A stretch of DNA of 64,000 nucleotides from Nitrospirota bacterium (GCA_963701855.1 CAVPBK010000006.1:480001-544000); one strand, 5' to 3'; positions 4,632 through 38,398 are shown, counted from the stretch's first letter. Numbers and translations are program-made. Notes: a model not told the origin generated them from the letters alone.

Positions 4632-5945
<1,314 letters not shown>

Positions 5946-5949
5946 CGGC

Positions 5950-6145
5950 GGGCCTGAGGCTCGCTGTCGCTCCCAGGCTCCCGGAATGACCCTTCCGGCC
6001 TCAGGCGAAGCGAACCTTCTGGAATTCCTTCAGCTGCGGTCGCTTCGGCGACCGCAGTCCTTCAGTCAGTTCCAGCTTTCACATCGCCCGAGGCTCGGTG
6101 GGTCCCCATTCCTCCGCCAAGGTCGCGCCAGAGAGCCTCAGGCCC
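5950..6145 (+). repeat. Family C ~196-nt structured element, copy 1
   Basis: Perfect 13-bp closing IR GGGCCTGAGGCTC / GAGCCTCAGGCCC; core CCTTCTGGAATTCCTTCA-[hairpin]-CTTCAGTCAGTTCCAGCTTT shared with copies at ~10.8 and ~35.3 kb. Confidence 0.8.
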
Positions 6146-6222
6146 TCCTGGGGAGAACGTAAAAATGCGCGCAAGTGGACCACTCCGCACCACTTCTGCC
6201 AGCAATGGAGAAGGGAGTAAGG

Positions 6223-6255
6223 AAAAGGCCACCGGAAACGGTGGCCTTTTTGTTT
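6223..6255 (+). terminator. Rho-independent terminator
   Basis: AAAAGGCCACCG-GAAA-CGGTGGCCTTTTTGTTT. Confidence 0.85.
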
Positions 6256-6301
6256 GCGGTCGAGCCAGCAGTGGCTGACACCGCCCCTCACTGAGGAGGA
6301 T

Positions 6302-6395
6302 AGAGCGAGACAGATGCTCCCTACTGCTCGCAGACCGCGCACGATCAGAATGTGCTCGGTCGATGCGCGCAGTAGGGCGCGCCTGCACCCACTCC
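6302..6395 (+). repeat. Family B ~100-nt hairpin element, copy 1
   Basis: Core TGCTCGCAGACCGCGCACGATCAGAATGTGCTCGGTCGATGCGCGCA, also present at 19.5, 45.7 and 49.0 kb. Confidence 0.8.
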
Positions 6396-6474
6396 GCTGT
6401 GACAGAAGTTGAGGGATTAGAAAGGCGACCTTTCTGTTTTCTTGAAGCCTTGTCAGCTAACCTTTCACGCAAAG

Positions 6475-6640
6475 CCCGCTGATTAAGAGTGATAAACGGC
6501 CATTTTTCACAAAGCTCGCTATTGCAACGGTTTCCCCAATTTAGTTAGCAATATCGAAGTCCTATAGCATTCTATTCAGTCTATACATTCCCGTTCGTTC
6601 CTTTCCTTTCCCGCCTTGTCTGGTCACAAAAGTGGTCACA
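6475..6640 (-). mobile_element. att-like scar: tRNA-Lys(CUU) anticodon/3' fragment plus arm-type direct repeats
   Basis: Minus strand ACTCTTAATCAGCGGG (6490-6475); imperfect IR at ~6506-6556; TGGTCACA twice with a 12-bp period at 6621-6640. Confidence 0.55.
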
Positions 6641-6836
6641 TCTGTTTCACGGCTTCATGACAATGAGCGAAAGCAACAAGGTGATAATAGAAATATCTGC
6701 TTCATCGAAGGTCTTTCATCACCAATCCGGACTCACTCGGACTTCCATCCTGAAACCAGATCCCACCCGTGCACCCCTGCTTCGGCAAGACTATCGTGAG
6801 TCGTGTCTCGTGTGGGTTAGGACCTGAAAGACGTCA

Positions 6837-8492
6837 TCACGTTCGAGCTACGGCATTCGGCAGCTCTACCATCTTTTGGTACAGCAGTCCGCCAACATAC
6901 AGGGAGGCACCAAGCACCAGCAGACAGCCAATGCGGACGAGCGAATCGGCACCGGAAAGATCAAAGAGCCAGACTTTGATTCCAAAGGCCCCGAATACAA
7001 AGAGCGCGGACTGTCCAAGGCTTTTATTGGACAGCCGGATGGCGACCAGAAGAGTGGCCATCGCCAAGAGCGCCCAGATCAGCGAGATGGCGAGTCGACC
7101 ATGGAACAGCTGTCCCGCTCCAGCCATGGTATTGGCGTGCCCCATGTAGAGGAGCCAGGGGGAATAGAGGGCTAAGTCCCGCTGACTTTGGAGAAGCCCA
7201 TACCCCACATACAAGGCGATCGCGTACAGCGGGATCAAGAACTTATACCCCGGGACCTCCTGTACTTCCCACTCCAATAACAAACGACCATCATTGATCA
7301 GAAAGATCATGATGGCTGCGGCAAACACCGGCCACCAGTTGATGGCATGCTCAGAATGCAGACTGGCATAGCCAGCCATAAGCACGATTAGTCCCAGACC
7401 GACCCAGAGTCGTAATCGGTCAGGCAGTAATTCGAGATACCCTGCATGCAGCATCACGACCGCCGCATAGGCAGCAATGATGAGCCGACCCGCTGACGCG
7501 GAGACGGAGTACGCTCGCGCCAGTGCGTAAGCGCTGAGGAGAACTACCAAACTGCTACAGGCAATCCATGGGGCCCAGGTGGGCAGATGCTCTCGCAAGA
7601 TGGTGTATTGCAGGAAATAAAAAATCAGCAGGACTGGGAGGTGGGATTTGACCGAGCGCATCTCGAGCGGAGCCTGATGGACCACCGAGAAGATAGCTGT
7701 GGCCCCGGTGAACAGGAGGAACTGCAGGAGCTGGAAGGTCACTGCGGCGTGCCACTGCGTGGGATTCCCGTCTCTCCACGCGTAGTCAAAGACGATCAGG
7801 GCGAGATAGGCCGCAAGCAGATACACCTGCCGTCGCTCAACCTTAATGGCATACCAACAGTACAGCACGCTCCAGGCGGAGAAGTAGATCGCGAGATCCA
7901 GAGGATTTTGATGAAAGGTTGTTAGCAGGACCGGGGCGGAATAGGACCCAATGACCGCGACGAGCGGATAAAACTCGCCTTCGAATACACGTCCCAAGAC
8001 CAATGCGACTCCACAAATGAGCACAACTCCTATAGTCGCTTGCAGTGGTGTAATTAGGCTGTAGTAAAGATGTCCACCATAATCCGCCAGAAAGAGAATG
8101 ACCAAGCCAGCCCCAGGGAGAAAACTTGCGTACCTCGGATGCTTCGCCTTTACGGTGAAGCCGATGAAAATCAGCACGAGACCAAAGAGAGCGGCCAGCA
8201 CCACCTGACGAACGGGAGTCAGCCACCCGACGGTGATGGCCAGGCGAATCAGATACGATGCCGCCAGGATGAGGGCCGCCATACTGCCCCACCCCAAGAT
8301 GGCGGTGGCGGTTGGTGTGGGCGGTATGGCCGGTGTAGACGATGAGGCAGGACGAGCGGTGTGTCGTGGGGGGGCTGGGATGGAGGGCGGCGCAGCGTAT
8401 GACGGAGGCGCAGCACTCCGGAGCTTCAGGGCCTCTTCAATGGCCTGGAGCCGAACGTCAATCGCATGGAACCGTCCCTCGAATTCGTCCAT
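6837..8492 (-). CDS. Polytopic membrane protein, DUF2339-like
   Basis: N-terminal coiled coil and Pro-rich linker, GWLTPVRQ motif, many TM helices, C-terminal K..LFDL......RI...LVLG pattern. Confidence 0.75.
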   Translation of the reverse strand: MDEFEGRFHAIDVRLQAIEEALKLRSAAPPSYAAPPSIPAPPRHTARPASSSTPAIPPTPTATAILGWGSMAALILAASYLIRLAITVGWLTPVRQVVLAALFGLVLIFIGFTVKAKHPRYASFLPGAGLVILFLADYGGHLYYSLITPLQATIGVVLICGVALVLGRVFEGEFYPLVAVIGSYSAPVLLTTFHQNPLDLAIYFSAWSVLYCWYAIKVERRQVYLLAAYLALIVFDYAWRDGNPTQWHAAVTFQLLQFLLFTGATAIFSVVHQAPLEMRSVKSHLPVLLIFYFLQYTILREHLPTWAPWIACSSLVVLLSAYALARAYSVSASAGRLIIAAYAAVVMLHAGYLELLPDRLRLWVGLGLIVLMAGYASLHSEHAINWWPVFAAAIMIFLINDGRLLLEWEVQEVPGYKFLIPLYAIALYVGYGLLQSQRDLALYSPWLLYMGHANTMAGAGQLFHGRLAISLIWALLAMATLLVAIRLSNKSLGQSALFVFGAFGIKVWLFDLSGADSLVRIGCLLVLGASLYVGGLLYQKMVELPNAVART

Positions 8493-8845
8493 TATCGAGA
8501 TCTCAGATGGCGGACGTGATCTTGGCCATCCCGCGTACGCGTGAACCAGAGCAAGTGTGCGATCGATACGCCAAGCCTGAGCATCTACCGAGAAGTATAG
8601 ACGGTACTGTCACATCGTCAAGGATTCCATAACAACACAACGAATGGCGAAGATCGTCCAGGTGGGAGCACCTGATCGGGACTCAAAGCATCAGGCAAGA
8701 GCTTGTGCTAATAATTCCTAACCCCCTGCTCCTACGACTAAACCTATCCTCCAATCAGCTGATTTAAGGACAGCGGAGAGTTGGTCTTGCTAGGCTGAGA
8801 TAACGAAAGTTTGGAGGCTGTAATTCTCGCAGGTATTGTGGACAA

Positions 8846-9003
8846 CCGACCAGCGGTTTAGGAAACCGTGTACGTCAGCCCACTCAGGCTCACTGGAACT
8901 CATTCAGGCCAACTGGGGCCAAGGTTTTCTGGGATACGAACTTTGGCTGGAGTAGGCCTGAGTGAGTTGGAGTGAGGTGGGCTTGAGCACAAAACGAGCA
9001 CAA
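8846..9003 (-). mobile_element. att-like scar: tRNA-Arg(CCU) anticodon stem-loop fragment plus arm-type direct repeats
   Basis: Minus strand ACGGTTTCCTAAACCGCTGGTCGG (8869-8846); long imperfect IR at 8877-8983; GAGCACAA twice with an 11-bp period at 8985-9003. Confidence 0.6.
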
Positions 9004-9120
9004 TTGGCTCCTGAACTGTATGCGCTACGCAACCTAATGGTATGGTTTTCGAGGGAAAACGTGGTCTAGTTCCATGCTTTCCAAGGAGGTAAGGGGCTCT
9101 CGCCTAAACTGAGTCGCTCC

Positions 9121-9540
9121 TCATACCATTGCTTGTAACCTTGAGCCCATCCCTAGCTCCCGTTCTATTTCTGGGGGGAAACACGGAACGAGAATGCCAA
9201 GCCAACGAGCCAATGCAGTTTTTCTCAATCTCCATATCCGTACACAATGGCATGTTCGTTCTGAATAAAATGAATTCTTATTAATAGCTTCAGTATGAGG
9301 AGAAATACGGATCAACATTTAGAACCTCATTCCCATAATATATCCTCTTTGTCGTCTCCAATTTCGTGAAACCTAAATGCCAACATGGATCGAGCAACTG
9401 TATCTTGCTCATCCTCAAGAGTTCTCAGCCGTTCACAAAGCTTGATGGCCTCTAAATGGTTTCCTTCTTTTGCTATCTTAAATGAGAGGTACACCTCACT
9501 AACCGTCGCTTTGCCGCATTGAGATATTTCATGTGTACTA
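9121..9540 (-). pseudogene. AT-rich decayed coding remnant (helical or TPR-like fragments)
   Basis: Short protein-like frames (YLSFKIAKEGNHLEAIKLCERLRTLEDEQD...) broken by stops. Confidence 0.3.
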
Positions 9541-9858
9541 TCAAGCCTGGTTGTTTGGATTCAACGATACATCGACTCCAATCCAAGGCTCCAACCGGCA
9601 AACTCTCGCCTTCTACATTGCTATCCTGAAAATAGGAGAATGGCAAAATATTTCAGGGAAAAGACTAGTTGTCTGGAGGCGTGTCAAAAACGCTGTGAGT
9701 AACTAGCCGGTATCACTTGGATTCAGTTGAGGATTAATGGTAGTGGTCAAAGAGGCCAAAACAACTAATTTTGAACCTACATGAAATCGTGGTTGCTGAA
9801 CATTGTAGAGAGGATGTTGTGGAACGCTACGGGCGCAGGTAACTCAGTGTTCTCGCAG

Positions 9859-10310
9859 TTAATCCACTTGAATTTGATCGAAGGGTCGCAACTCATATGT
9901 TAAATTGTTCTCCTTACCACTGAGACGGAATCGATACCCACCTATTTGATAAACCTGTCCCACACGAAGACTCTCGGCTGCCAACTCTTCTTTCCACCCA
10001 GGAAGTGGAACTCCATAGGTGACTTCTTTGAGTGTCGCCTCTTTGCTCATGGGCTTAATCGACCACACAGTTCGATAAGGCTTTTCCGAACCCTTTGGAG
10101 ACACCTCAAGAACGTCAAACACGCTTACCCATACCCCCGACGTGAGCACCCAGGGGAGGCACTAACGCAAAATGTCGGGTTTCCTTTTGTGTCAAGGCTC
10201 TTGATTGACAGATGCCATTCGTATTCACACCCGCTGAGTGCCCACATGACAACGAGGAGCGGTACACCCCATTGGAAATATTTCCATTTGAATCCCATAG
10301 GAAATGTCAT
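9859..10310 (-). pseudogene. Putative lipoprotein split by a one-base frameshift
   Basis: Lipobox WALSGC in 10125-10310 joins 9859-10149 if the G5 run near 10134-10138 were G6. Confidence 0.65.
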
Positions 10311-10709
10311 ACTTCAACGAGCCTATCGGTCGCTGGAGACTCCGATGTGTACTCCCCCACTTAATTTAACCGGCCTTCTAATTTAGCCATGGAAGCAGCA
10401 AAGATTCCTAACACATTTCTTTTCAAGCCTACCATAAGGCCTGGAACACGCTGGATAGATTTGTCTTATTCCGCTTATGACTTGGGAGGAATGGCTGTGA
10501 AACTTGGCGGCATTCGATTAAGAGAGATGAAAATGGCTAAAAATTCACTTTCATTTGATTGGCCCGATGAAAAAAGGCAACGGCGAAGAAGAAAACAGTG
10601 TCAGGAACAGTTTGCTAATGCAGAGGTAGCTACCGGTCCAGGTGCTCGATCTCGCACATCATCGCGCATGTGCGCAGGGAGACAAGAAAACAGGGACATC
10701 CAAATTTTT

Positions 10710-10917
10710 CTGCTGCCACGGGTTCTGAGGGTTGGCAGGAGGGAAGACCGCCGGAGGCGCGGAGCCCCGCCGAAGCTCGACCTGGAGGTAAGCGGAAACT
10801 GACTGAGTCTGTGAAGGAATTTCAGAAGGTGTTCTGCCTCTCCGATCCTGTGGGGTCGCACCGGGAGATATGAAAGCCAGGCAGGCGGATGTATGGAAAG
10901 ATGGAGAGGCAGTGCAG
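10710..10917 (-). repeat. Family C element, degenerate copy 2 (inner hairpin absent)
   Basis: Minus strand CCTTCTGAAATTCCTTCAcagacTCAGTCAGTTTCCGCTT at 10829-10790, with upstream CTCCCGGTGCGACCCC; outer limits approximate. Confidence 0.65.
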
Positions 10918-10937: not shown

Positions 10938-11681
10938 TTACCGTTTCGTCCGCACCTTGGCTACAAGTTCTTTGAGGCTCGTCAATTCAAGCGCGCCTTG
11001 ATACATTTCACCGCCTACAACAAACCCCGGCGTTCCCGAAATACCAAGAAGCTTGGCCAGCGCATGATTACGATCGATCGCAACTTGCCATTCCGGCGCA
11101 CGCAGATCCGCCTCGAGCTTCTTGACGTCCAATCCGACTCGCTGGGCAATTGCGAAGACTTCTTCCGTGGTCAGCTCATTGTCCGATGCCAGCATCGCCT
11201 CATGGAACGCTTGGTGTTTACCTTGTTTCCGAGCGGCTAACGCAGCGCGAGCCCCAAAGACCGAGGTTTCCCCCAAAATGGGATAATCTTTGTACACCAC
11301 CCGCACGCCTGGCTCGTCTTTTTGCAATTGCGTCACGGCACTTGCGACCCGCTTGCAGTAGCCACAGCGATAGTCAAAAAACTCGATCACGGTCACATCT
11401 CCATTCAGATTGCCGCTGACGGGAGAAGCCGGATCTCGGAGCAACTCCTCTTGGTGTGTCGCAATCGCCTGCCTGACCCGCACTGCTTCATCCTCTTGGC
11501 GCTTGACCTCATATGCTTGCAAGGATTGCATAATGACCTCGGGATGCGAACGAATATACTGCTCAATGGCCTGGTCTAGTGCAGGCTGTGCGGGAGCCAA
11601 TGACGGTTCGGCCCTTGCAGAAAGTATCGGGCCAACAGCAAGGACGGTCGCACTGAATACGAGGACAGCACGAAGTTTCAT
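10938..11681 (-). CDS. DsbA family (Com1-like) periplasmic thiol-disulfide oxidoreductase
   Basis: Signal peptide, HPEVI helical extension, EFFDYRCGYC, GTP cis-Pro loop; GGAG RBS before the ATG at 11681. Confidence 0.9.
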   Translation of the reverse strand: MKLRAVLVFSATVLAVGPILSARAEPSLAPAQPALDQAIEQYIRSHPEVIMQSLQAYEVKRQEDEAVRVRQAIATHQEELLRDPASPVSGNLNGDVTVIEFFDYRCGYCKRVASAVTQLQKDEPGVRVVYKDYPILGETSVFGARAALAARKQGKHQAFHEAMLASDNELTTEEVFAIAQRVGLDVKKLEADLRAPEWQVAIDRNHALAKLLGISGTPGFVVGGEMYQGALELTSLKELVAKVRTKR

Positions 11682-12184
11682 GGTATCTCCATTAATAGGC
11701 TCGTTCAAAAACGGCAAGAACACCCCAATCGATTCGTACCAATCATACCGCAAGGCTTCACCCGATAGACAGCGAAGGCTCACCAGGTTTACGCCTCTAC
11801 GTATCCTCCATCAAACAATCATTATTTTCCAGAAAATATCGCCGTGGAAACAAATAAGGACATTCTAATTTCCCTGACGTCTCAGCGGGCTGTCGGAGGC
11901 GAAGGTCACCGAAGGCATGGGAACTAGACGAGACTCAATCAGACCAAGAATTGAAGAAATACGGTATGGTGCTATGGTGGGGAGTCTGGCGAGACGAGCG
12001 GCTCCAGACGGTTGATCAGCTCAGGGATGTCATGGCTCACAATCTTCTACCCCCAGCTCGTGCAGCCTACTTGTGTAGTTTTGTATGTGCCTCTCTCAAT
12101 AGGATGATGTCTGACACCTTCCCTTCACCCCTCACGTGCAGGCTTCTTTTACTTGAGGGACGGTTTGGGCGTATCCTGCCAGTC

Positions 12185-32724: not shown

Positions 32725-33084
32725 ATGCCGAACCCGACCATGAAAGAAGTGGAAACCAGGCTTGGAACTGTCCAGTGCGCCATTTGTAAGGGATCAAGCT
32801 TTGGAATAGATGAACGCTCTATGCAGGCAGATGGTGAATGGCGAGGCATCTGTAGAAAATGCTACTACACCTTCCCAATATACACAGATATGGAGTTCTA
32901 CCTGCGCACGCAGCCGGATATCCCCTATCGGCTCAAAGAGATGTCCTGTCCGACCTGCAATCAACGAGGCGTAAGCCTCAATTTTCGTATCACCATGTCT
33001 GTCCGAGAATCGATCTATTTCCTGACCTGCACCGCATGCCAGAAAACATACCCGGAGCGTTCCTCCCTGGAAGCGTTTGAATAA
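32725..33084 (+). CDS. Hypothetical double zinc-ribbon protein
   Basis: Four CxxC pairs (CAIC, CRKC, CPTC, CTAC); AAGGAG RBS. Confidence 0.8.
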   Translation: MPNPTMKEVETRLGTVQCAICKGSSFGIDERSMQADGEWRGICRKCYYTFPIYTDMEFYLRTQPDIPYRLKEMSCPTCNQRGVSLNFRITMSVRESIYFLTCTACQKTYPERSSLEAFE

Positions 33085-33122
33085 CTCCCCTTTTCACCCC
33101 CTGCGTGGTGTATACTCTCTGT

Positions 33123-33317
33123 ATGAGTGAGACACCAAAAAGTCCGGTCAAGGCCCCCGAAGCTCCCGCTCCAGAGCCCGCGGCCAAGCCAAGAAAAGAA
33201 ATCCCGCTCATCGCCATTCAAGACGATGGTGACATGATCGCCGAGGAAATGGCCGAGATGTTCGACGAAGACCGGGTGAGTCATCAGCACGGAAGCGCAG
33301 AACCAGAAGCGGATTAA
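33123..33317 (+). CDS. Small acidic hypothetical protein
   Basis: MSETPKSP... ORF; its TAA stop coincides with the end of a family A MITE. Confidence 0.55.
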   Translation: MSETPKSPVKAPEAPAPEPAAKPRKEIPLIAIQDDGDMIAEEMAEMFDEDRVSHQHGSAEPEAD

Positions 33318-33441
33318 CGGCTGTTGAAAAAGCCCTCCAGCATCGTTCTCGCATCCCTCAACCCTCAACGTAACCCACAGGGTACGCCTCGCGGGTCGAA
33401 CTCCTTGCGGCCTTGTTGGCTAGCCTTTTTGAGCAACCTGC
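33315..33441 (+). mobile_element. Family A MITE core copy (diverged)
   Basis: TAACGGCTGTTGAAAAA ... TTTTTGAGCAACCTGC; central CAACGTAACC...GGTACGCCT. Confidence 0.8.
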
Positions 33442-33497
33442 AGAACGAGAAAAGGCTCCGGACACATTTCTCTTATCTGACTCCTTCCTCTTAAGCT

Positions 33498-33935
33498 CTA
33501 TGTCGGAAGCTTATAGATCATGTCATATATGACATGGAGGTTGTCTTTTGTGAATTCATCAAGGGACTTACCTTTTATCATTGGGCTCGTATCTTCGAAG
33601 CCAGTTTGCTTCCTTAACCATGCATTGATCTTCAACGCGGGTACCTTTATGTTTCCTTGATTCATCTGGTCGAAGAAATCCTTGGCTCCGTCTTTGAGGC
33701 ATTTGATGTCATCAACCACGCCATTAAGTAACTTCATCCCTATGGGATCTTTTGGCTCGATATTCATATCGCGTAATTCAGCAGCGAACGCCTGCAGAAT
33801 GACAAGCTCCTTGGTCTTTTTGTATTCATCGGCGCTGAAGTAACTGGGATTGTGGCGCAACTTAGAAATCGTCAACAAGCTGAATGCATATAACAGTAGT
33901 GGCGATCGGACCAAGGATGACATGACATTGGCCAA
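33498..33935 (-). CDS. AT-rich hypothetical protein, possibly a 5'-truncated fragment
   Basis: 145-aa ORF with no clear RBS or start codon; foreign composition. Confidence 0.5.
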   Translation of the reverse strand: MANVMSSLVRSPLLLYAFSLLTISKLRHNPSYFSADEYKKTKELVILQAFAAELRDMNIEPKDPIGMKLLNGVVDDIKCLKDGAKDFFDQMNQGNIKVPALKINAWLRKQTGFEDTSPMIKGKSLDEFTKDNLHVIYDMIYKLPT

Positions 33936-34087
33936 GGACCCACGATTAGTTTGAGTGTTGTGCTTCTTGAAAAAGCTCTTTGTAAGTTTTTCCGTAGAAC
34001 ATATTGAGGATTCGAACGTTTTCTGTCACATACGATTTAAGCCCTCTCCCTCCACGCCTAGTGGCTGAGCGCTTTCTGTCCCCACCC

Positions 34088-34326
34088 TCAACCCAATATT
34101 TTGTCCAAAAATATGGCCCTAAGTGAATGCAGGCTAAAACCTCCCCAAGCTCCGAACCCCACGAACAGAAGCACGGCCGAGATTATCAACGCCAACGTCC
34201 AACCACGGTTTTCATCTAAACCATGCTCGACGATAAATCCAATTGGATAATGGCGATAAGTAAGCCAATGCCGATGAGCGTGGCTCTTTGATACTTGTTC
34301 ATAAGATCAATTTGTCGTTTGCACAT
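34088..34326 (-). pseudogene. Frameshifted small membrane protein beginning right after the attC-like R' site
   Basis: MNKYQRATLIGIGLLIAIIQL continues in the adjacent frame as GFIVEHGLDENRGWTLALIISAVLLFVGFGAWGG. Confidence 0.5.
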
Positions 34327-34328
34327 AC

Positions 34329-34392
34329 CACCAACGAATAAGCTCAGGGGTTCGCGGTTTCATAGCGCCTCCCCTGGAGCGATTGATTAACC
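34329..34392 (-). mobile_element. Degenerate integron attC-like recombination site (64 bp)
   Basis: Minus strand GGTTAAT-CAATC-GCTCCAGGGG...CCCCTGAGC-TTATTC-GTTGGTG: R''-5 nt-L'' with an extrahelical base, then L'-6 nt-R'. Confidence 0.65.
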
Positions 34393-34412
34393 CACCTAAG
34401 AGGCCCGCCCCC

Positions 34413-35061
34413 TTATTTTCCCTCGTCCCAGGCAGCGTCGTTCAGTGGTACGCGCAAAATGTGCCCTGTCGTGCTAAACAACACAATCTCGCGCTGATAT
34501 TTCATAAGCCTGCACAGCTCGAAGAGCGGCCGGATGTAGTCACTTTTAATGCCAGCACCGATAAGGACTGCCTTGATTGGAGGCTGAACGTACTTGAGCC
34601 CAGAGTCCGAGGAAGAATCAAGCGATACTCTTTCTCATAAGACCACTGCTGTGCCTTGTACCGAAGCTGATCACCAACAGAAGCACACTCTAGTGGGGCA
34701 AGGTCGGCTAGATACTTAACGGGAACAATCTTATCCTCGTACCCAGCAAGGTCTAACTCTAGGCAGATTCCCGAATGTCCATTACCGTAATGGGACCACA
34801 TCAGCAATGACTCGGGAGACTCGGAGAAACAGCAGAGTCTATACCGGTCGAGTTCCTGATCGACTGCTGACCAGAAACGGCAAGCGCGCTCGAACGACTG
34901 CCCCGCAGTCAGTGAAGACGGCGGATTCAGGAGTGATATCCCCGGGACCCTTCGAGCGGGTCGTTAAGTTCATGGAGACTGAGGCAGTACAAGCGCCTTG
35001 TGAGCAATAGGTCGACTATATGCACAAAAGGATCTAGTGTCTTGAACTTGTAGAGGAGCAT
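34413..35061 (-). pseudogene. DUF2971-like protein with 2-3 frameshifts
   Basis: LYKFK...LNDPLEG / CCFSESPESLLMWSHYGNGHSGICLE...KAQQWSYEKEYR / IKAVLIG, spread over different frames. Confidence 0.75.
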
Positions 35062-35186
35062 GGCAGATATTTTCTGACTGCAACAAATCCTATGCGTTTC
35101 TTCATCACAGAGCAAGAAGGTTATGACGCTCTAGTCCGAGAAACGGGATCGGTCTATAAGCGATCGGTCCCCGTTTCCACACTCTC

Positions 35187-35384
35187 AAGGAAGCGTGCGG
35201 CATTGAGCGACTTGCGCTGGAGCGGCGGGGTCCCCACCCGGCGTCTGAAGAAGGAAAGCTGGAACTGACTGAAGCACTGCGATCGAATGATCGCAGCTGA
35301 AGGAATTCCAGAAGGCTTCCACTTCAGAGCGCCGAGGAAGGGGTGCCGCGGGAGGCGCCCAAGCGAGAAGCTGCATGCTTCCTT
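35187..35384 (-). repeat. Family C ~198-nt structured element, copy 3
   Basis: 15-bp closing IR AAGGAAGCGTGCGGC / GCTGCATGCTTCCTT; core at 35255-35315 almost identical to 6015-6079. Confidence 0.8.
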
Positions 35385-35402
35385 CGTCCTAATTTCGAAG
35401 GC

Positions 35403-36626
35403 TTAAACGGAGCGAACGATTTTGACTGCCGCATCGCTCTCAATTCTTCCCACTGGCGAAACCTTCCCCTCTCGTTCCTTGCGCACAATCCTCTCGATCT
35501 GCACGATTGCGCCCCGATGCCAGCTATCGACAGCAGCATTCTGAGGAGAGGCCTTCCGATCCAGCCGACCGACTTCAGGACGTCCTGTTTCATTGCACAG
35601 CCAGGCTCGCTTTTCTCCCTTCAATTCTCGTAGTTCGCTCACGACACGGAAGGTCTGCGGGCTCCGCGTCACAATGGTCCGTCCATCTGTGCGCAACAGC
35701 AGATAGGAAAACTTCAATGCGTCTTTGATGAACCCCACCTCCCGGTCGAGTGCAGCAATCGCGGGAGGCGTCTGCCAGGGTCGCTCTTCATGACACCAAT
35801 CGTCTGGATGGTCTAAGGCGGGACAGGCCCCCTCGTGCAAGCAGGGACTATAAACCGTACAGAGTCTCTGCTTAAGCAGGTGATTGCGCATCTGATGCAG
35901 CGCTCTGGCCGTCTGCCGCAACGCCGGCTCGACGATCATGATGGTGCCGTGCGGTGCGAGAAACGGCAAGAGCTGTGCGACAACCGTCGCACGCTCAGTT
36001 GGGGGATCGACCGATACGGGAAACAATTCATTGAGGCAGTTCGCGATAATAATCAGGTCGTATGGTCCGCCTCGTACAATCTGCTTACCAAGATCACCCT
36101 TGAGCGGATGTTCCAGATTGCCCTCGATACAGCGGAGACCTGCGTTGGGTATTCCAACCTCGTTGCAGTAGGCCTCCCACAACCTCTTCGCGTCCTGCAA
36201 AGATGCCTGAGACGCATCTGCAGCCAGGACCGATACAGATTTCGCCCGCTCAGGGCCGCGATGCCACAGCCAATCCAGCAAGGCTAATGATCCAGTCCCT
36301 GGGCCACAGCCGAGATCGAGCACAGCCATCGGTCGGTCTGGTATTTCAGTGCTGTCGTCGTTCGGTAGCTCATCCAGCAGAACTTGGATTTTCGAGAGGT
36401 TCACAGGGAGAAAATACGAGTGATAGGCGGCTGCCTGTGCCGGATCATCCAGGTAACGGAATGGCAATGATGGGCGTGCGGTCGTGAACAAACGCGATAG
36501 ATTCACGACCGCTTGCGCTATCGCGTGACCGCTGAGATCCCTGACTGGCGATACCCTTGCCAGAACCTTTAGAACTTCCGATGACAGGCCAGCAGGCTTC
36601 TTCTCGTTGAAGGGTTGCATGGCCAT
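35403..36626 (-). CDS. Rsm22/METTL17-family SAM-dependent methyltransferase-like protein
   Basis: AY..YF.P.N, LDLGCGPG, IVEPA, SPCLHEGACP...WCH, KFSYL. Confidence 0.85.
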   Translation of the reverse strand: MAMQPFNEKKPAGLSSEVLKVLARVSPVRDLSGHAIAQAVVNLSRLFTTARPSLPFRYLDDPAQAAAYHSYFLPVNLSKIQVLLDELPNDDSTEIPDRPMAVLDLGCGPGTGSLALLDWLWHRGPERAKSVSVLAADASQASLQDAKRLWEAYCNEVGIPNAGLRCIEGNLEHPLKGDLGKQIVRGGPYDLIIIANCLNELFPVSVDPPTERATVVAQLLPFLAPHGTIMIVEPALRQTARALHQMRNHLLKQRLCTVYSPCLHEGACPALDHPDDWCHEERPWQTPPAIAALDREVGFIKDALKFSYLLLRTDGRTIVTRSPQTFRVVSELRELKGEKRAWLCNETGRPEVGRLDRKASPQNAAVDSWHRGAIVQIERIVRKEREGKVSPVGRIESDAAVKIVRSV

Positions 36627-36658
36627 AGTGTAAGCTGCTGTCGATTAGGAGGACAACC

Positions 36659-36907
36659 ATGACAGACGAAATTTTGTTGGCCTACAAAGACGTGGAACGT
36701 TCGATGGAACGTTTCACCCTGCTCCTACAAAGCCACGTGGACACAATGGGTGCCGACCCATCCCACAACGCCGATCAAGTTTTCCGCTTGTCCCAAGGCA
36801 CCAAAGCGATGAGGGATAGCGCGATGATCTATCTCTCTTATGCCAAGTACGTCTCCTATGGCATGCCGGAGAGTGAAGACATGGTGCAAGACGAACTGCA
36901 GGGATAG
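36659..36907 (+). CDS. Small hypothetical protein
   Basis: AGGAGG RBS; 82-aa helical ORF followed by a terminator. Confidence 0.8.
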   Translation: MTDEILLAYKDVERSMERFTLLLQSHVDTMGADPSHNADQVFRLSQGTKAMRDSAMIYLSYAKYVSYGMPESEDMVQDELQG

Positions 36908-36913
36908 AAGGTA

Positions 36914-36977
36914 TTGGTCTGTCTGGTTCATCTGGTCTATCTCATTGCACGAGATAGACCAGACAAACCAAACAGAC
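36914..36977. repeat. Family E 9-bp inverted tandem array
   Basis: (T)TGGTCTGTC/TGGTTCATC/TGGTCTATC facing GATAGACCA/GACAAACCA/AACAGAC; same unit as the array inside the MITE at 2438-2515. Confidence 0.75.
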
Positions 36978-36980
36978 TCT

Positions 36981-37027
36981 AAAACAAAAGAGCCCGATCC
37001 TTTAAAGGATCGGGCTCTTGTGTTTTA
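36981..37027. terminator. Bidirectional rho-independent terminator
   Basis: AAAACAAAAGAGCCCGATCCTT-TA-AAGGATCGGGCTCTTGTGTTTT between convergent genes. Confidence 0.9.
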
Positions 37028-37042
37028 GACTCGAACGGCCTC

Positions 37043-38398
37043 TCAGATGCTACGCATGAAATGGGCCACGTCATCCTGATTGACCGCACCACCCATAACC
37101 GAAGACTGGGCGACATTACTCGACTTCTTCCCGGTCAGACCGGACTCAACTTCGTCCACGATCAACTCCACCGGCATCGATTGACCACCATACACACGCG
37201 GCCCACCGATGATCTTGGCTTTGGAGTACCCGTAAATCGCGGTAGCCACCTCTTTCGCCAGCCATCCGACATAGTTGAACTCCGGAACGACAATGAGCTT
37301 TGTTTTCCCAAGAAGTTGCCGTAATTCCATCGTCGGAAACGGACGGAGCGACCGAACCTTGATCAAACCGATCTTGATGCCCTTTTCGGCGCAAATACGG
37401 ACCGCTTCCCTCGACTGAGCCGCTGCACTACCTGAGGCAACAATCACCGCCTCGGCATCATCTACATTCTCAGCCGTGAGCAACCCGCCCATATACTGAT
37501 TAATGTATTTGCGTGACCGTTCGACTGCCGCCCACACTTCCTGTTGCCAGACCGCATGAATATTGTAGGCCATGAAGTTCGACTTCTGAACCGGGGCGTC
37601 ACGTGATAAACGAGCGGGAGGATTCTCCGCATCGAGTACCGGCACCGCGCCACGCCAGGCTTCACGAGGAGGAAGCTTCATGCTGCGGTCCTGCATCCGG
37701 ACATACCCACGGGCGTGGGTCACGAAGAACCCGTCGCAGCAGACGCCGACTGGGAGCGTCACATCGTTCTTCTCGCTGATCGAAAACCCCGCCATGATGA
37801 AGTCGTACATGTCCTGCTGATTCTCGGCATGGAAGACAATCATGCCGCAGTTCAATAGATACGCCACTTCGATATTGTCAGGCTGAATGGCCAACGGGGC
37901 ATTGACGACGCGGCAGGTGAACATGGCGACAATGGGCAGCCGATGCCCCGGCCAGGACGCGATGCCTTCCAGACCCCTCAGCGTACCGGGGCCTGCGGTC
38001 GCCGTAAAGCAGCGGACACCGGATCGAGATCCGCCCGCCATCGCCGCCATGACGCCGACTTCTTCTTCACCACGATAATACTCTTTCACGTACCCTTCGC
38101 CGTAGAGCACGCCGATGAGCTGCATCGTTTCGCTCTGCGGGGTAATGGGATAGGCAATGGCCAGGTCCACGTTGGAGCGCCGAACAGCCTCTTTCGCCGC
38201 CTCGCTGCCCGTTATAAACTCTTTCGTTCGCGGGGCTTCGAGGAACAAGTATTCCGGCGTGACCACCTTCTGCCGTTTCGCTTCGGCATGGGGGTCTTTC
38301 CTTGCGCCCGTCGTCTCGGCCGGTTTAGGGGCCGCGACGCTCGTGATGGGATCGCCTTGGGGATTTGTCTTCTGTTCTGCTTCGAGTGCTTCGCTCAT
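37043..38398 (-). CDS. forA: 2-oxoglutarate:ferredoxin oxidoreductase (five-subunit type) alpha subunit
   Basis: AYPITPQSE, TATAGPG, transketolase-C-like C-terminus; For rather than Por is inferred from linkage to the acl cluster. Confidence 0.85.
   Translation of the reverse strand: MSEALEAEQKTNPQGDPITSVAAPKPAETTGARKDPHAEAKRQKVVTPEYLFLEAPRTKEFITGSEAAKEAVRRSNVDLAIAYPITPQSETMQLIGVLYGEGYVKEYYRGEEEVGVMAAMAGGSRSGVRCFTATAGPGTLRGLEGIASWPGHRLPIVAMFTCRVVNAPLAIQPDNIEVAYLLNCGMIVFHAENQQDMYDFIMAGFSISEKNDVTLPVGVCCDGFFVTHARGYVRMQDRSMKLPPREAWRGAVPVLDAENPPARLSRDAPVQKSNFMAYNIHAVWQQEVWAAVERSRKYINQYMGGLLTAENVDDAEAVIVASGSAAAQSREAVRICAEKGIKIGLIKVRSLRPFPTMELRQLLGKTKLIVVPEFNYVGWLAKEVATAIYGYSKAKIIGGPRVYGGQSMPVELIVDEVESGLTGKKSSNVAQSSVMGGAVNQDDVAHFMRSI

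Follow-up and report, generated by a model that had tools for sequence, protein, structure and literature searches.

ERIC-type repeats, among the closest described systems to the sequence presented here, are about 127-150 nt long. REPs measure 20-40 nt, have a conserved head, are present at tens to hundreds of copies and depend on a Y1 RAYT gene. The attC sites of integrons, of 57-141 nt, carry conserved boxes (RYYYAAC ... GTTRRRY) at their base and a variable apex, and the IS110 family of mobile elements is known for the sequence-guided targeting of both REP and attC. The bacteria of the Nitrospira family are the main nitrite oxidisers and include the complete nitrifiers; to our knowledge, their non-coding DNA is almost unexplored.

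Here we describe Family C, a previously undescribed and widespread structured repeat of Nitrospira-family bacteria. The analysis started from a stretch of 64,000 nt (hereafter, the window) belonging to a genome of 4.30 Mb in 15 contigs (the source genome, G000). Copy 1 (5950..6145, plus strand) is an imperfect hairpin of 196 nt that begins 4 nt past the stop codon of ahcY (4689..5945, plus strand), which encodes S-adenosylhomocysteine hydrolase (Pfam AdoHcyase, E 2.7e-67). Copy 2 (~10710-10917, minus strand), a partly decayed member of a short-apex subfamily, begins ~20 nt past the stop codon of a gene for a DsbA-like thioredoxin-fold protein (10938..11783, minus strand; Pfam DSBA, E 2.3e-25). 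Copy 3 (35187..35384, minus strand), a hairpin of 198 nt and of the commonest subfamily, begins ~18 nt past the stop codon of an Rsm22-like methyltransferase gene (35403..36626, minus strand; Pfam Rsm22, E 8.1e-15). All three lie where a first-pass annotation of the window had placed them, each in the sense of the gene 5' to it. They align along their whole length, and a covariance model built here, R1, matches them with 113 bits (copy 1), 57 bits (copy 2, 10748-10871) and 169 bits (copy 3, the best match). The genome-wide search with such a model, as that annotation had proposed, brings to light more copies than the window shows: R1 has seven matches in the source genome, three of them in the window and the others at C13:79602-79745 (+), C13:82381-82523 (-), C4:108328-108474 (-) and, weakly, C6:880490-880610 (+), while nhmmer finds five copies with a full core.

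When the centre of copy 3 was used as a BLAST query, Family C was found in 115 of 201 genomes and in 32 of the 39 genera of the bacterial family, a tally that takes in the unpublished genomes G006, G053 and G076. In five well-assembled genomes R1 counts 9, 11, 7, 8 and 22 copies, i.e., a range of 7-22 per genome, and it matches 8 of 18 additional genomes from this family. In a single further family of the phylum, 3 of 11 genomes have R1 matches, these being weak hairpins of ~115 nt with a GGAAGCCUUC/GCUUUCC helix, and the 121 genomes from the 20 remaining families of the phylum give none. Family C has no match in 72,556 plasmids or 50,697 phages, and the contigs of IMG/VR have no match to a 20-nt word of the core. 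The statement that the element belongs to no known family holds against Rfam, since neither the window nor six related loci have a match at the gathering score; when E values of up to 10 were admitted for the 3.1-kb locus of copy 3, the two matches obtained were at chance level and both off the element. No description of Family C was found in the full-text literature on Nitrospira, and the accessible part of one paper (PMC12542641) is unrelated to it. Family C is a candidate addition to RNA and repeat libraries, and accounts for recurrent unannotated gaps of 200 nt behind genes.

As a whole, Family C is an imperfect hairpin of ~200 nt with a conserved apex of ~70 nt and basal stems that vary yet stay complementary. 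In copy 1 the conserved core (6013..6080, plus strand), defined by nhmmer core matches, invariant columns and the pair table, is made up of a CTGGAATT/AGTTCCAG helix, an internal loop whose two sides each carry CTTCAG, and a covarying apical stem-loop. At their ends, copies 1 and 3 have 13-15 bp stems of unrelated sequence that are complementary inside each copy, just as had been read from these two copies of 196 and 198 nt; when 23 copies and their flanks are aligned, the outermost 12-15 nt on each side differ among copies and pair only within a copy. The inner hairpin covaries (GCGGTC/GACCGC versus GCGATC/GATCGC) and is missing in copy 2, also as first described.

The folds predicted for copy 1 (-121.2 kcal/mol, z -10.0) and copy 3 (-94.0 kcal/mol, z -4.2) are equalled by none of 200 shuffles each, and that of copy 2 is no better than its shuffles (z -0.3; 74 of 200 as good). 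RNAalifold assigns 59 pairs, including 32 that show compensatory double changes, to the five full copies of the source genome, and 35 pairs, 21 of them compensatory, to 29 copies from 25 genomes. In an alignment of 83 copies, which was fitted to R1 and is hence biased towards the model, 93.8% of the cells are standard pairs versus 82.5% in column shuffles (a value reached by 0 of 500), double changes occur in 27 of the 35 pairs, and sliding the partners by 1-3 columns brings pairing down to 35-54%. The structure of Family C is under selection and its covariation is real, so that its designation as a structured element was well founded.

Several subfamilies can be recognized. The first and commonest, that of copy 3, has a small extra hairpin 20-30 nt past the main one, which in copy 3 occupies 35135..35186 (minus strand) and forms part of the repeat unit; in the alignment, a similar small hairpin accompanies several members of this subfamily located elsewhere. 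The second, with other arms, comprises copy 1 and the copies c4 and c5 of the source genome. The third lacks the apical stem, gives matches of 120-126 nt and has copy 2 as a weak member; this short-apex form is also present in G084, G024, G077 and G151, and since copies of 120-126 nt recur in other genera, the missing apical stem of copy 2 is a subfamily trait and not plain decay. The fourth is marked by a side hairpin of 38 nt following GGAA in the left arm. A small antisense ORF across the core, which seemed conserved in copies 1 and 2, turned out to be broken in other copies by loop-length differences of 1, 4 or 5 nt; it was the only antisense frame that looked conserved, and Family C is therefore regarded as non-coding. 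At 6020-6035 of the core, and at the same position in other copies, the motif TGGAAT-N5-CAGC has, by eye, the GG-N10-GC spacing of a sigma-54 promoter, but short-apex copies no longer have its GG.

When Family C is set beside ERIC, REP, MITE and attC, likenesses to each of them appear. With ERIC and the Correia/NEMIS elements it shares a long, imperfectly palindromic sequence that is conserved at its centre, the low to moderate copy number, the intergenic location by gene ends, the family-wide spread with sites that are partly species-specific, and the fact that orientation matters; ERIC lies in transcribed intergenic DNA, and Family C would be transcribed likewise. It differs from ERIC in its length of ~200 nt, its unconserved terminal stems, its tight spacing to stop codons and its modular subfamilies, with or without an apical stem and with or without a side hairpin, and as for the TA target duplication of ERIC type, a single pair of Family C loci, at nuoN, is compatible with it. 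REP and BIME resemble it as extragenic hairpins that come after genes, often inside operons, as candidate stabilisers of the upstream mRNA and as targets of IS110, whereas the unit of Family C is of ~200 nt, has 7-22 copies per genome and is conserved at its apex, not at its ends.

An identity with the REP/REPIN-RAYT system was discarded on account of this unit length and low copy number and because the Y1 (RAYT) genes do not track Family C. The Y1 transposase PF01797 occurs in 116 of 201 genomes with a genus pattern unlike that of Family C (14/30 vs 29/30 genomes in genus g1, 25/30 vs 6/30 in g10, 5/5 vs 0/5 in g14), and G151, which has nine copies of Family C, has no PF01797.

The likeness to attC lies in a hairpin that follows a gene in its sense, in promoterless small accessory genes nearby, including toxin-antitoxin pairs, in stems that keep structure over sequence, and in two Family C copies placed directly 5' of an integron integrase gene. 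The architecture of Family C is nevertheless the reverse of that of attC, with the apex conserved and the base variable, and its arrays have only 2-3 copies; identity with attC was rejected, as the ends of the copies lack RYYYAAC/GTTRRRY boxes and the source genome has no match to the integron integrase model TIGR02249 at E <= 1e-40. MITEs, in turn, are similarly short, non-coding and hairpin-forming, with insertion polymorphism between strains. The hairpin itself is not a MITE, given that its terminal inverted repeats are not conserved between copies in the 23-copy alignment, and neither a parent transposase, nor conserved terminal repeats, nor a demonstrated target duplication was found for it. 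The testable defining features of MITE, REPIN and attC are thus lacking, which puts Family C outside every named family; by analogy, our best reading of its kind is that it would be a lineage-specific, non-coding, non-autonomous palindromic repeat, as REP/BIME, ERIC and MITE are.

The orientation noted in the window extends to a wider sample of genomes. Among 49 copies from the fetched loci of six genomes, several of them orthologous between G000 and G151 and so partly non-independent, 36 are in the sense of the nearest 5' gene (binomial p 0.0014) and 13 are otherwise. R1 starts within ~120 nt of the stop codon of the 5' gene in 28 of the 49, and as the model begins ~28 nt inside the hairpin, the base of the latter typically lies 0-20 nt from that codon. 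The gene calls used for this came from a home-made codon-usage caller that misses some AT-rich genes; the downstream genes of the 49 copies have no strand bias. Copies of opposite orientation stand only 3-5 kb apart in the source genome, which indicates that orientation tracks the neighbouring gene and not the direction of replication. The 5' genes are chiefly housekeeping ones, such as ahcY, purQ (three genomes), purC, sucC (two genera), gltD (two genera), nuoN and recG, and a sigma-54 response regulator (two genera) is also among them.

Regarding the acting strand, in 71 of 74 copies the antisense strand is predicted to fold better than the sense strand (mean -106 vs -97 kcal/mol). The structure based on the sense strand has 292 G.U versus 67 A.C cells, an excess that was tried as a strand test and rejected, for it reappears (168 G.U versus 34 A.C) when the antisense alignment is folded separately; the wobble test is thus circular and does not decide the strand. 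An intrinsic terminator was ruled out as well, since the GC-rich hairpin has no T-run directly after it, neither in general nor at copies 1-3, where a terminator scan lists no terminator-like site. A separate GC hairpin with a T-run, read by eye and unlisted by the scan, is found at ~6227-6256, ~80 nt past copy 1. Public RNA runs contain small shares of the ahcY region, at most 0.14 of its words, all as contigs.

To the following reading we give about an even chance: Family C would be a co-transcribed 3'-UTR hairpin, maintained by selection, which heads insertion hotspots and is a target of mobile elements. Copies would arrive as small discrete insertions at a stop codon or a few bases past it, and would survive chiefly in the sense orientation. 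Such survival suggests, from orientation alone, that co-transcription with the gene, whose 3' UTR they would open, is most likely; a hairpin at this 3' end may, by the same token, stabilise the core transcript or insulate it from the downstream DNA. The basal stems would drift with their complementarity kept, the apex being conserved family-wide. The hairpin would also be a frequent first occupant of hotspots for small islets (toxin-antitoxin, defence, one integron) and, as a conserved multi-copy sequence, could be exploited by mobile elements.

Discrete insertion is best illustrated by nuoN. In G151 an insert of ~290 nt, consisting of the hairpin and ~85 nt more, lies within the nuoN stop codon with no cargo, and the corresponding site of G000 is empty; this is the single clean filled/empty pair, the one compatible with a TA duplication, since other DNA takes up the remaining sites. 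The copy that follows purQ itself provides the stop codon. Behind the M16 peptidase gene of genus g8, some relatives have the hairpin in common and the rest lose homology immediately at the stop codon; no extra clean empty site was found in this genus, its members being either filled or divergent from that codon on. The hairpin is also located between housekeeping genes, as in sucC-sucD and purC-purS. At the ahcY site, the copies of G000 and G151 are orthologues of one subfamily, that of G119 has different arms, and in G167 and G083 the place is taken by another, short repeat, from which frequent turnover at the same spot can be deduced.

Occupancy of this sort is also what would be expected of a mobile palindrome that is purely selfish and does nothing for the host, the hairpin serving its own mobilisation in trans and its position and orientation reflecting an insertion preference together with purifying selection against harmful insertions. 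This is a possible explanation, although a rather improbable one. Presence and absence do differ between close relatives, different subfamilies occupy one site in G000 and G119, near-identical copies coexist inside one genome (96-99% in G024, 95.5% in G077, up to 97% in G064), and both strands fold about equally, as those of a DNA palindrome would. But no transposase partner was found, copy number is low and the ends are unconserved between copies, unlike ends bound by a transposase; furthermore, many old copies, orthologous across genera, keep their pairing by compensatory change, and the orientation bias follows transcription.

The short repeat of the ahcY site is a hairpin of ~55-66 nt, of CTGCTCGCAGACCGCGCAC...GTGCTCGGTCGATGCGCGCAG type, and far more abundant, with dozens of matches per related genome. 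It fills the 3' site of ahcY in G167 and G083, and its tail persists past copy 1, at 6325-6380.

The first-pass annotation had also stated that the copies are followed by accessory DNA, and this is sustained by the genome sample. Pfam families of toxin-antitoxin, defence or mobile functions (E <= 1e-6) occur within two genes on the 3' side of 17 of the 49 copies, and within two genes on the 5' side of 4 of the 49, one more being ambiguous. Behind random gene ends of the source genome, taken from a set of 20 regions from which two overlapping copies 1-2 had been dropped beforehand, the same families occur within two genes in 3 of 50 cases; the 3' enrichment has a Fisher p of 0.0004 versus the random ends and of 0.0025 versus the 5' side. 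A check that needs no annotation agrees with this: GC content drops from the 5' to the 3' kilobase in 52 of 68 copies (mean -3.8 points), while in a control of 695 genes 54% show such a drop, with a mean of -0.46 points (p 0.0002). In metagenome-assembled genomes Family C thus flags accessory DNA, i.e., defence and toxin-antitoxin islets and one integron, behind housekeeping genes.

In the window, copy 3 is followed by a variable, AT-richer segment (33318..35134, no strand assigned), GC being 0.505 on the 3' side of the copy versus 0.568 on its 5' side. Its limits were drawn by BLAST of the window's interval 33000-37500 against the loci of relatives. Orthologues of copy 3 (90-99%) are present in G151, G119, G195, G167 and G027, and G151, G119 and G167 have 1.1-1.2 kb of unrelated DNA in place of the segment; homology past the copy stops at 35135 in G119 and 35131 in G167, where the repeat unit ends. 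The ORFs of the segment have no Pfam matches. At its far edge, directly past a conserved 70-aa ORF, another inverted-repeat element (GCTGTTGAAAAAGCC ... GGCTAGCCTTTTTGAGCAACC) occupies 33320-33440, and fragments of it match loci of G033 and G101. Copies 1 and 2 point inwards and enclose a segment (6146..10709, no strand assigned) with a DUF2339 membrane protein and small ORFs, whose content differs between close relatives, G151 having there ~1.9 kb with a Phd antitoxin gene. The DsbA-like gene adjoins ahcY only in G119 among the five close relatives searched.

Breaks of this kind could suggest that the hairpin is itself a recombination site or landing pad, folded as single-stranded DNA or as a cruciform and bound by a putative site-specific recombinase or transposase; cassettes would be inserted or swapped at its 3' base and inward pairs would bound a segment, following the logic of attC or plasmid dif. 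We consider this unlikely. The restriction of the accessory families to the 3' side, the AT-richer 3' flank and the sharp loss of homology at the 3' end of the unit are in its favour, the latter both at copy 3 and after purQ, where four genomes have the hairpin in common and differ in their DNA from the first bases past it. The purQ-purL islet has an equally sharp edge at its other end, where the purL coding sequence begins, which points to sharp edges as a product of selection on the flanking functional DNA, and they would be equally expected if islets were swapped by homologous recombination in conserved flanks. Among the matches listed, orthologous loci included, close pairs counted by eye are convergent in 9 cases, tandem in 7 and divergent in 0, a bias that would suit the bounding of segments by inward copies. 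A cassette ORF right after the hairpin (at least 60 aa, within 120 nt, same strand) was sought and rejected as a rule, being present in 30 of 70 cases versus 45 of 70 in the mirror control.

The purQ loci bear on whether the hairpin is the cause of variability. In 7 of 30 such loci the hairpin stands after purQ, and all seven have a purQ-purL spacer of at least 1268 nt; among the 23 loci with no hairpin, 11 are expanded (at least 488 nt) and 12 compact (119 nt at most; Fisher p 0.024). These proportions of expanded spacers (7/7 vs 11/23) suggest that the hairpin is part of the inserted material, and that the hotspot also fills without it. Hotspots that vary with no hairpin, together with a hairpin inserted bare as in nuoN, speak against the landing pad. 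Of the gene-capture or recombination hotspot proposed at first, the structure and the link to accessory DNA stand, and the hairpin as cause is unsupported; the link between Family C and foreign DNA is real but probably indirect. If Family C were an insulator or a recombination site, it would offer a new handle on the gene flux that streamlined chemolithotrophs tolerate in operons such as purQ-purL and sucC-sucD.

A landing pad would also call for a recombinase, and proximity to a particular one had been suggested as a check; none tracks Family C. The Y1 transposases are anti-correlated with it by genus, and TIGR02249 exceeds its cut-off in 20 of 201 genomes. An association is seen at the gltD locus, where the integron integrase is the next gene after the hairpin in two genomes. 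G101 has gltD followed by a toxin-antitoxin pair, then the hairpin and an intact integrase (464 bits for a cut-off of 265; G101:C10:192882-193826, i.e., L133 883-1827), with no second, bracketing hairpin within 20 kb past the integron (best E 0.21). In G061, gltD is followed by the hairpin, a broken integrase (G061:C1:1021699-1022229, in L063) and six small co-oriented ORFs with attC-like sites between them, and then by a partial inverted hairpin orthologous to c4 of the source genome, whose own gltD locus has c5 and c4 without an integrase. A hairpin lies within 1 kb in 2 of the 5 integrase loci examined, both of them this same gltD locus, in which the integrase is co-oriented with the cassettes. 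A relaxed attC scan, crude in that its stricter version missed the positive control, finds sites in the arrays of G061 (L063) and G101 (L133) and 0 in the window and in two other loci of the source genome, L001 and L002. The gltD cassettes thus use ordinary, short, canonical attC-like sites, and Family C is not the recombination site of the integron. The accessible part of one study reports 2 CALIN elements only for the Nitrospira phylum (PMC9024848); set against integrase in 20 of 201 genomes, this suggests that complete integrons may be under-reported there.

A stronger version, in which Family C copies would be the cis-acting boundary modules of a gene-exchange system, with a putative recombinase swapping promoterless cassettes at their 3' base, the gltD integron platform included, and with inward pairs defining the exchanged segment, appears very doubtful.

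That mobile elements exploit the hairpin, as the reading of a selected 3'-UTR element proposes, is illustrated by two genomes. In G064 (locus L076, 2577-4087), an IS110-family element of 1.5 kb (DEDD_Tnp_IS110, E 1.5e-32) splits a Family C hairpin in its core, between GGAAT and GCCTTCTGG; such a precise insertion suggests sequence-guided targeting of the core, a point that would also suit a landing pad. At this very insertion point the G061 copies have their 38-nt side hairpin, which resembles the end of the IS110 element. In G024, the hairpin travels as an internal passenger of a 583-nt MITE, present in four copies that are 96-99% identical (L046 3952-4534, L047 3934-4514, L048 and L050). This MITE has terminal inverted repeats of ~30 bp starting with GGCTCTTC and 8-bp target duplications, and holds two further hairpins and an ORF of 60-62 aa; its ends look ISL3-like.

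Two further observations concern the DNA behind purQ. On contig C4 of the source genome (locus L002, 7282-7346, ~6190-6254), the purQ-purL islet is split into two halves by a degenerate 65-nt duplicate of the beginning of the purL coding sequence, so that direct repeats of the purL 5' end enclose a four-gene toxin-antitoxin block; this block resembles an element integrated into the start of purL and replacing that start. In G084 (locus L105, 609-1460), three Family C copies of two subfamilies follow purQ directly in tandem, ~350 nt apart, with similar spacers that carry a GATTCGCGACGCA motif, also found past the copies of G064.
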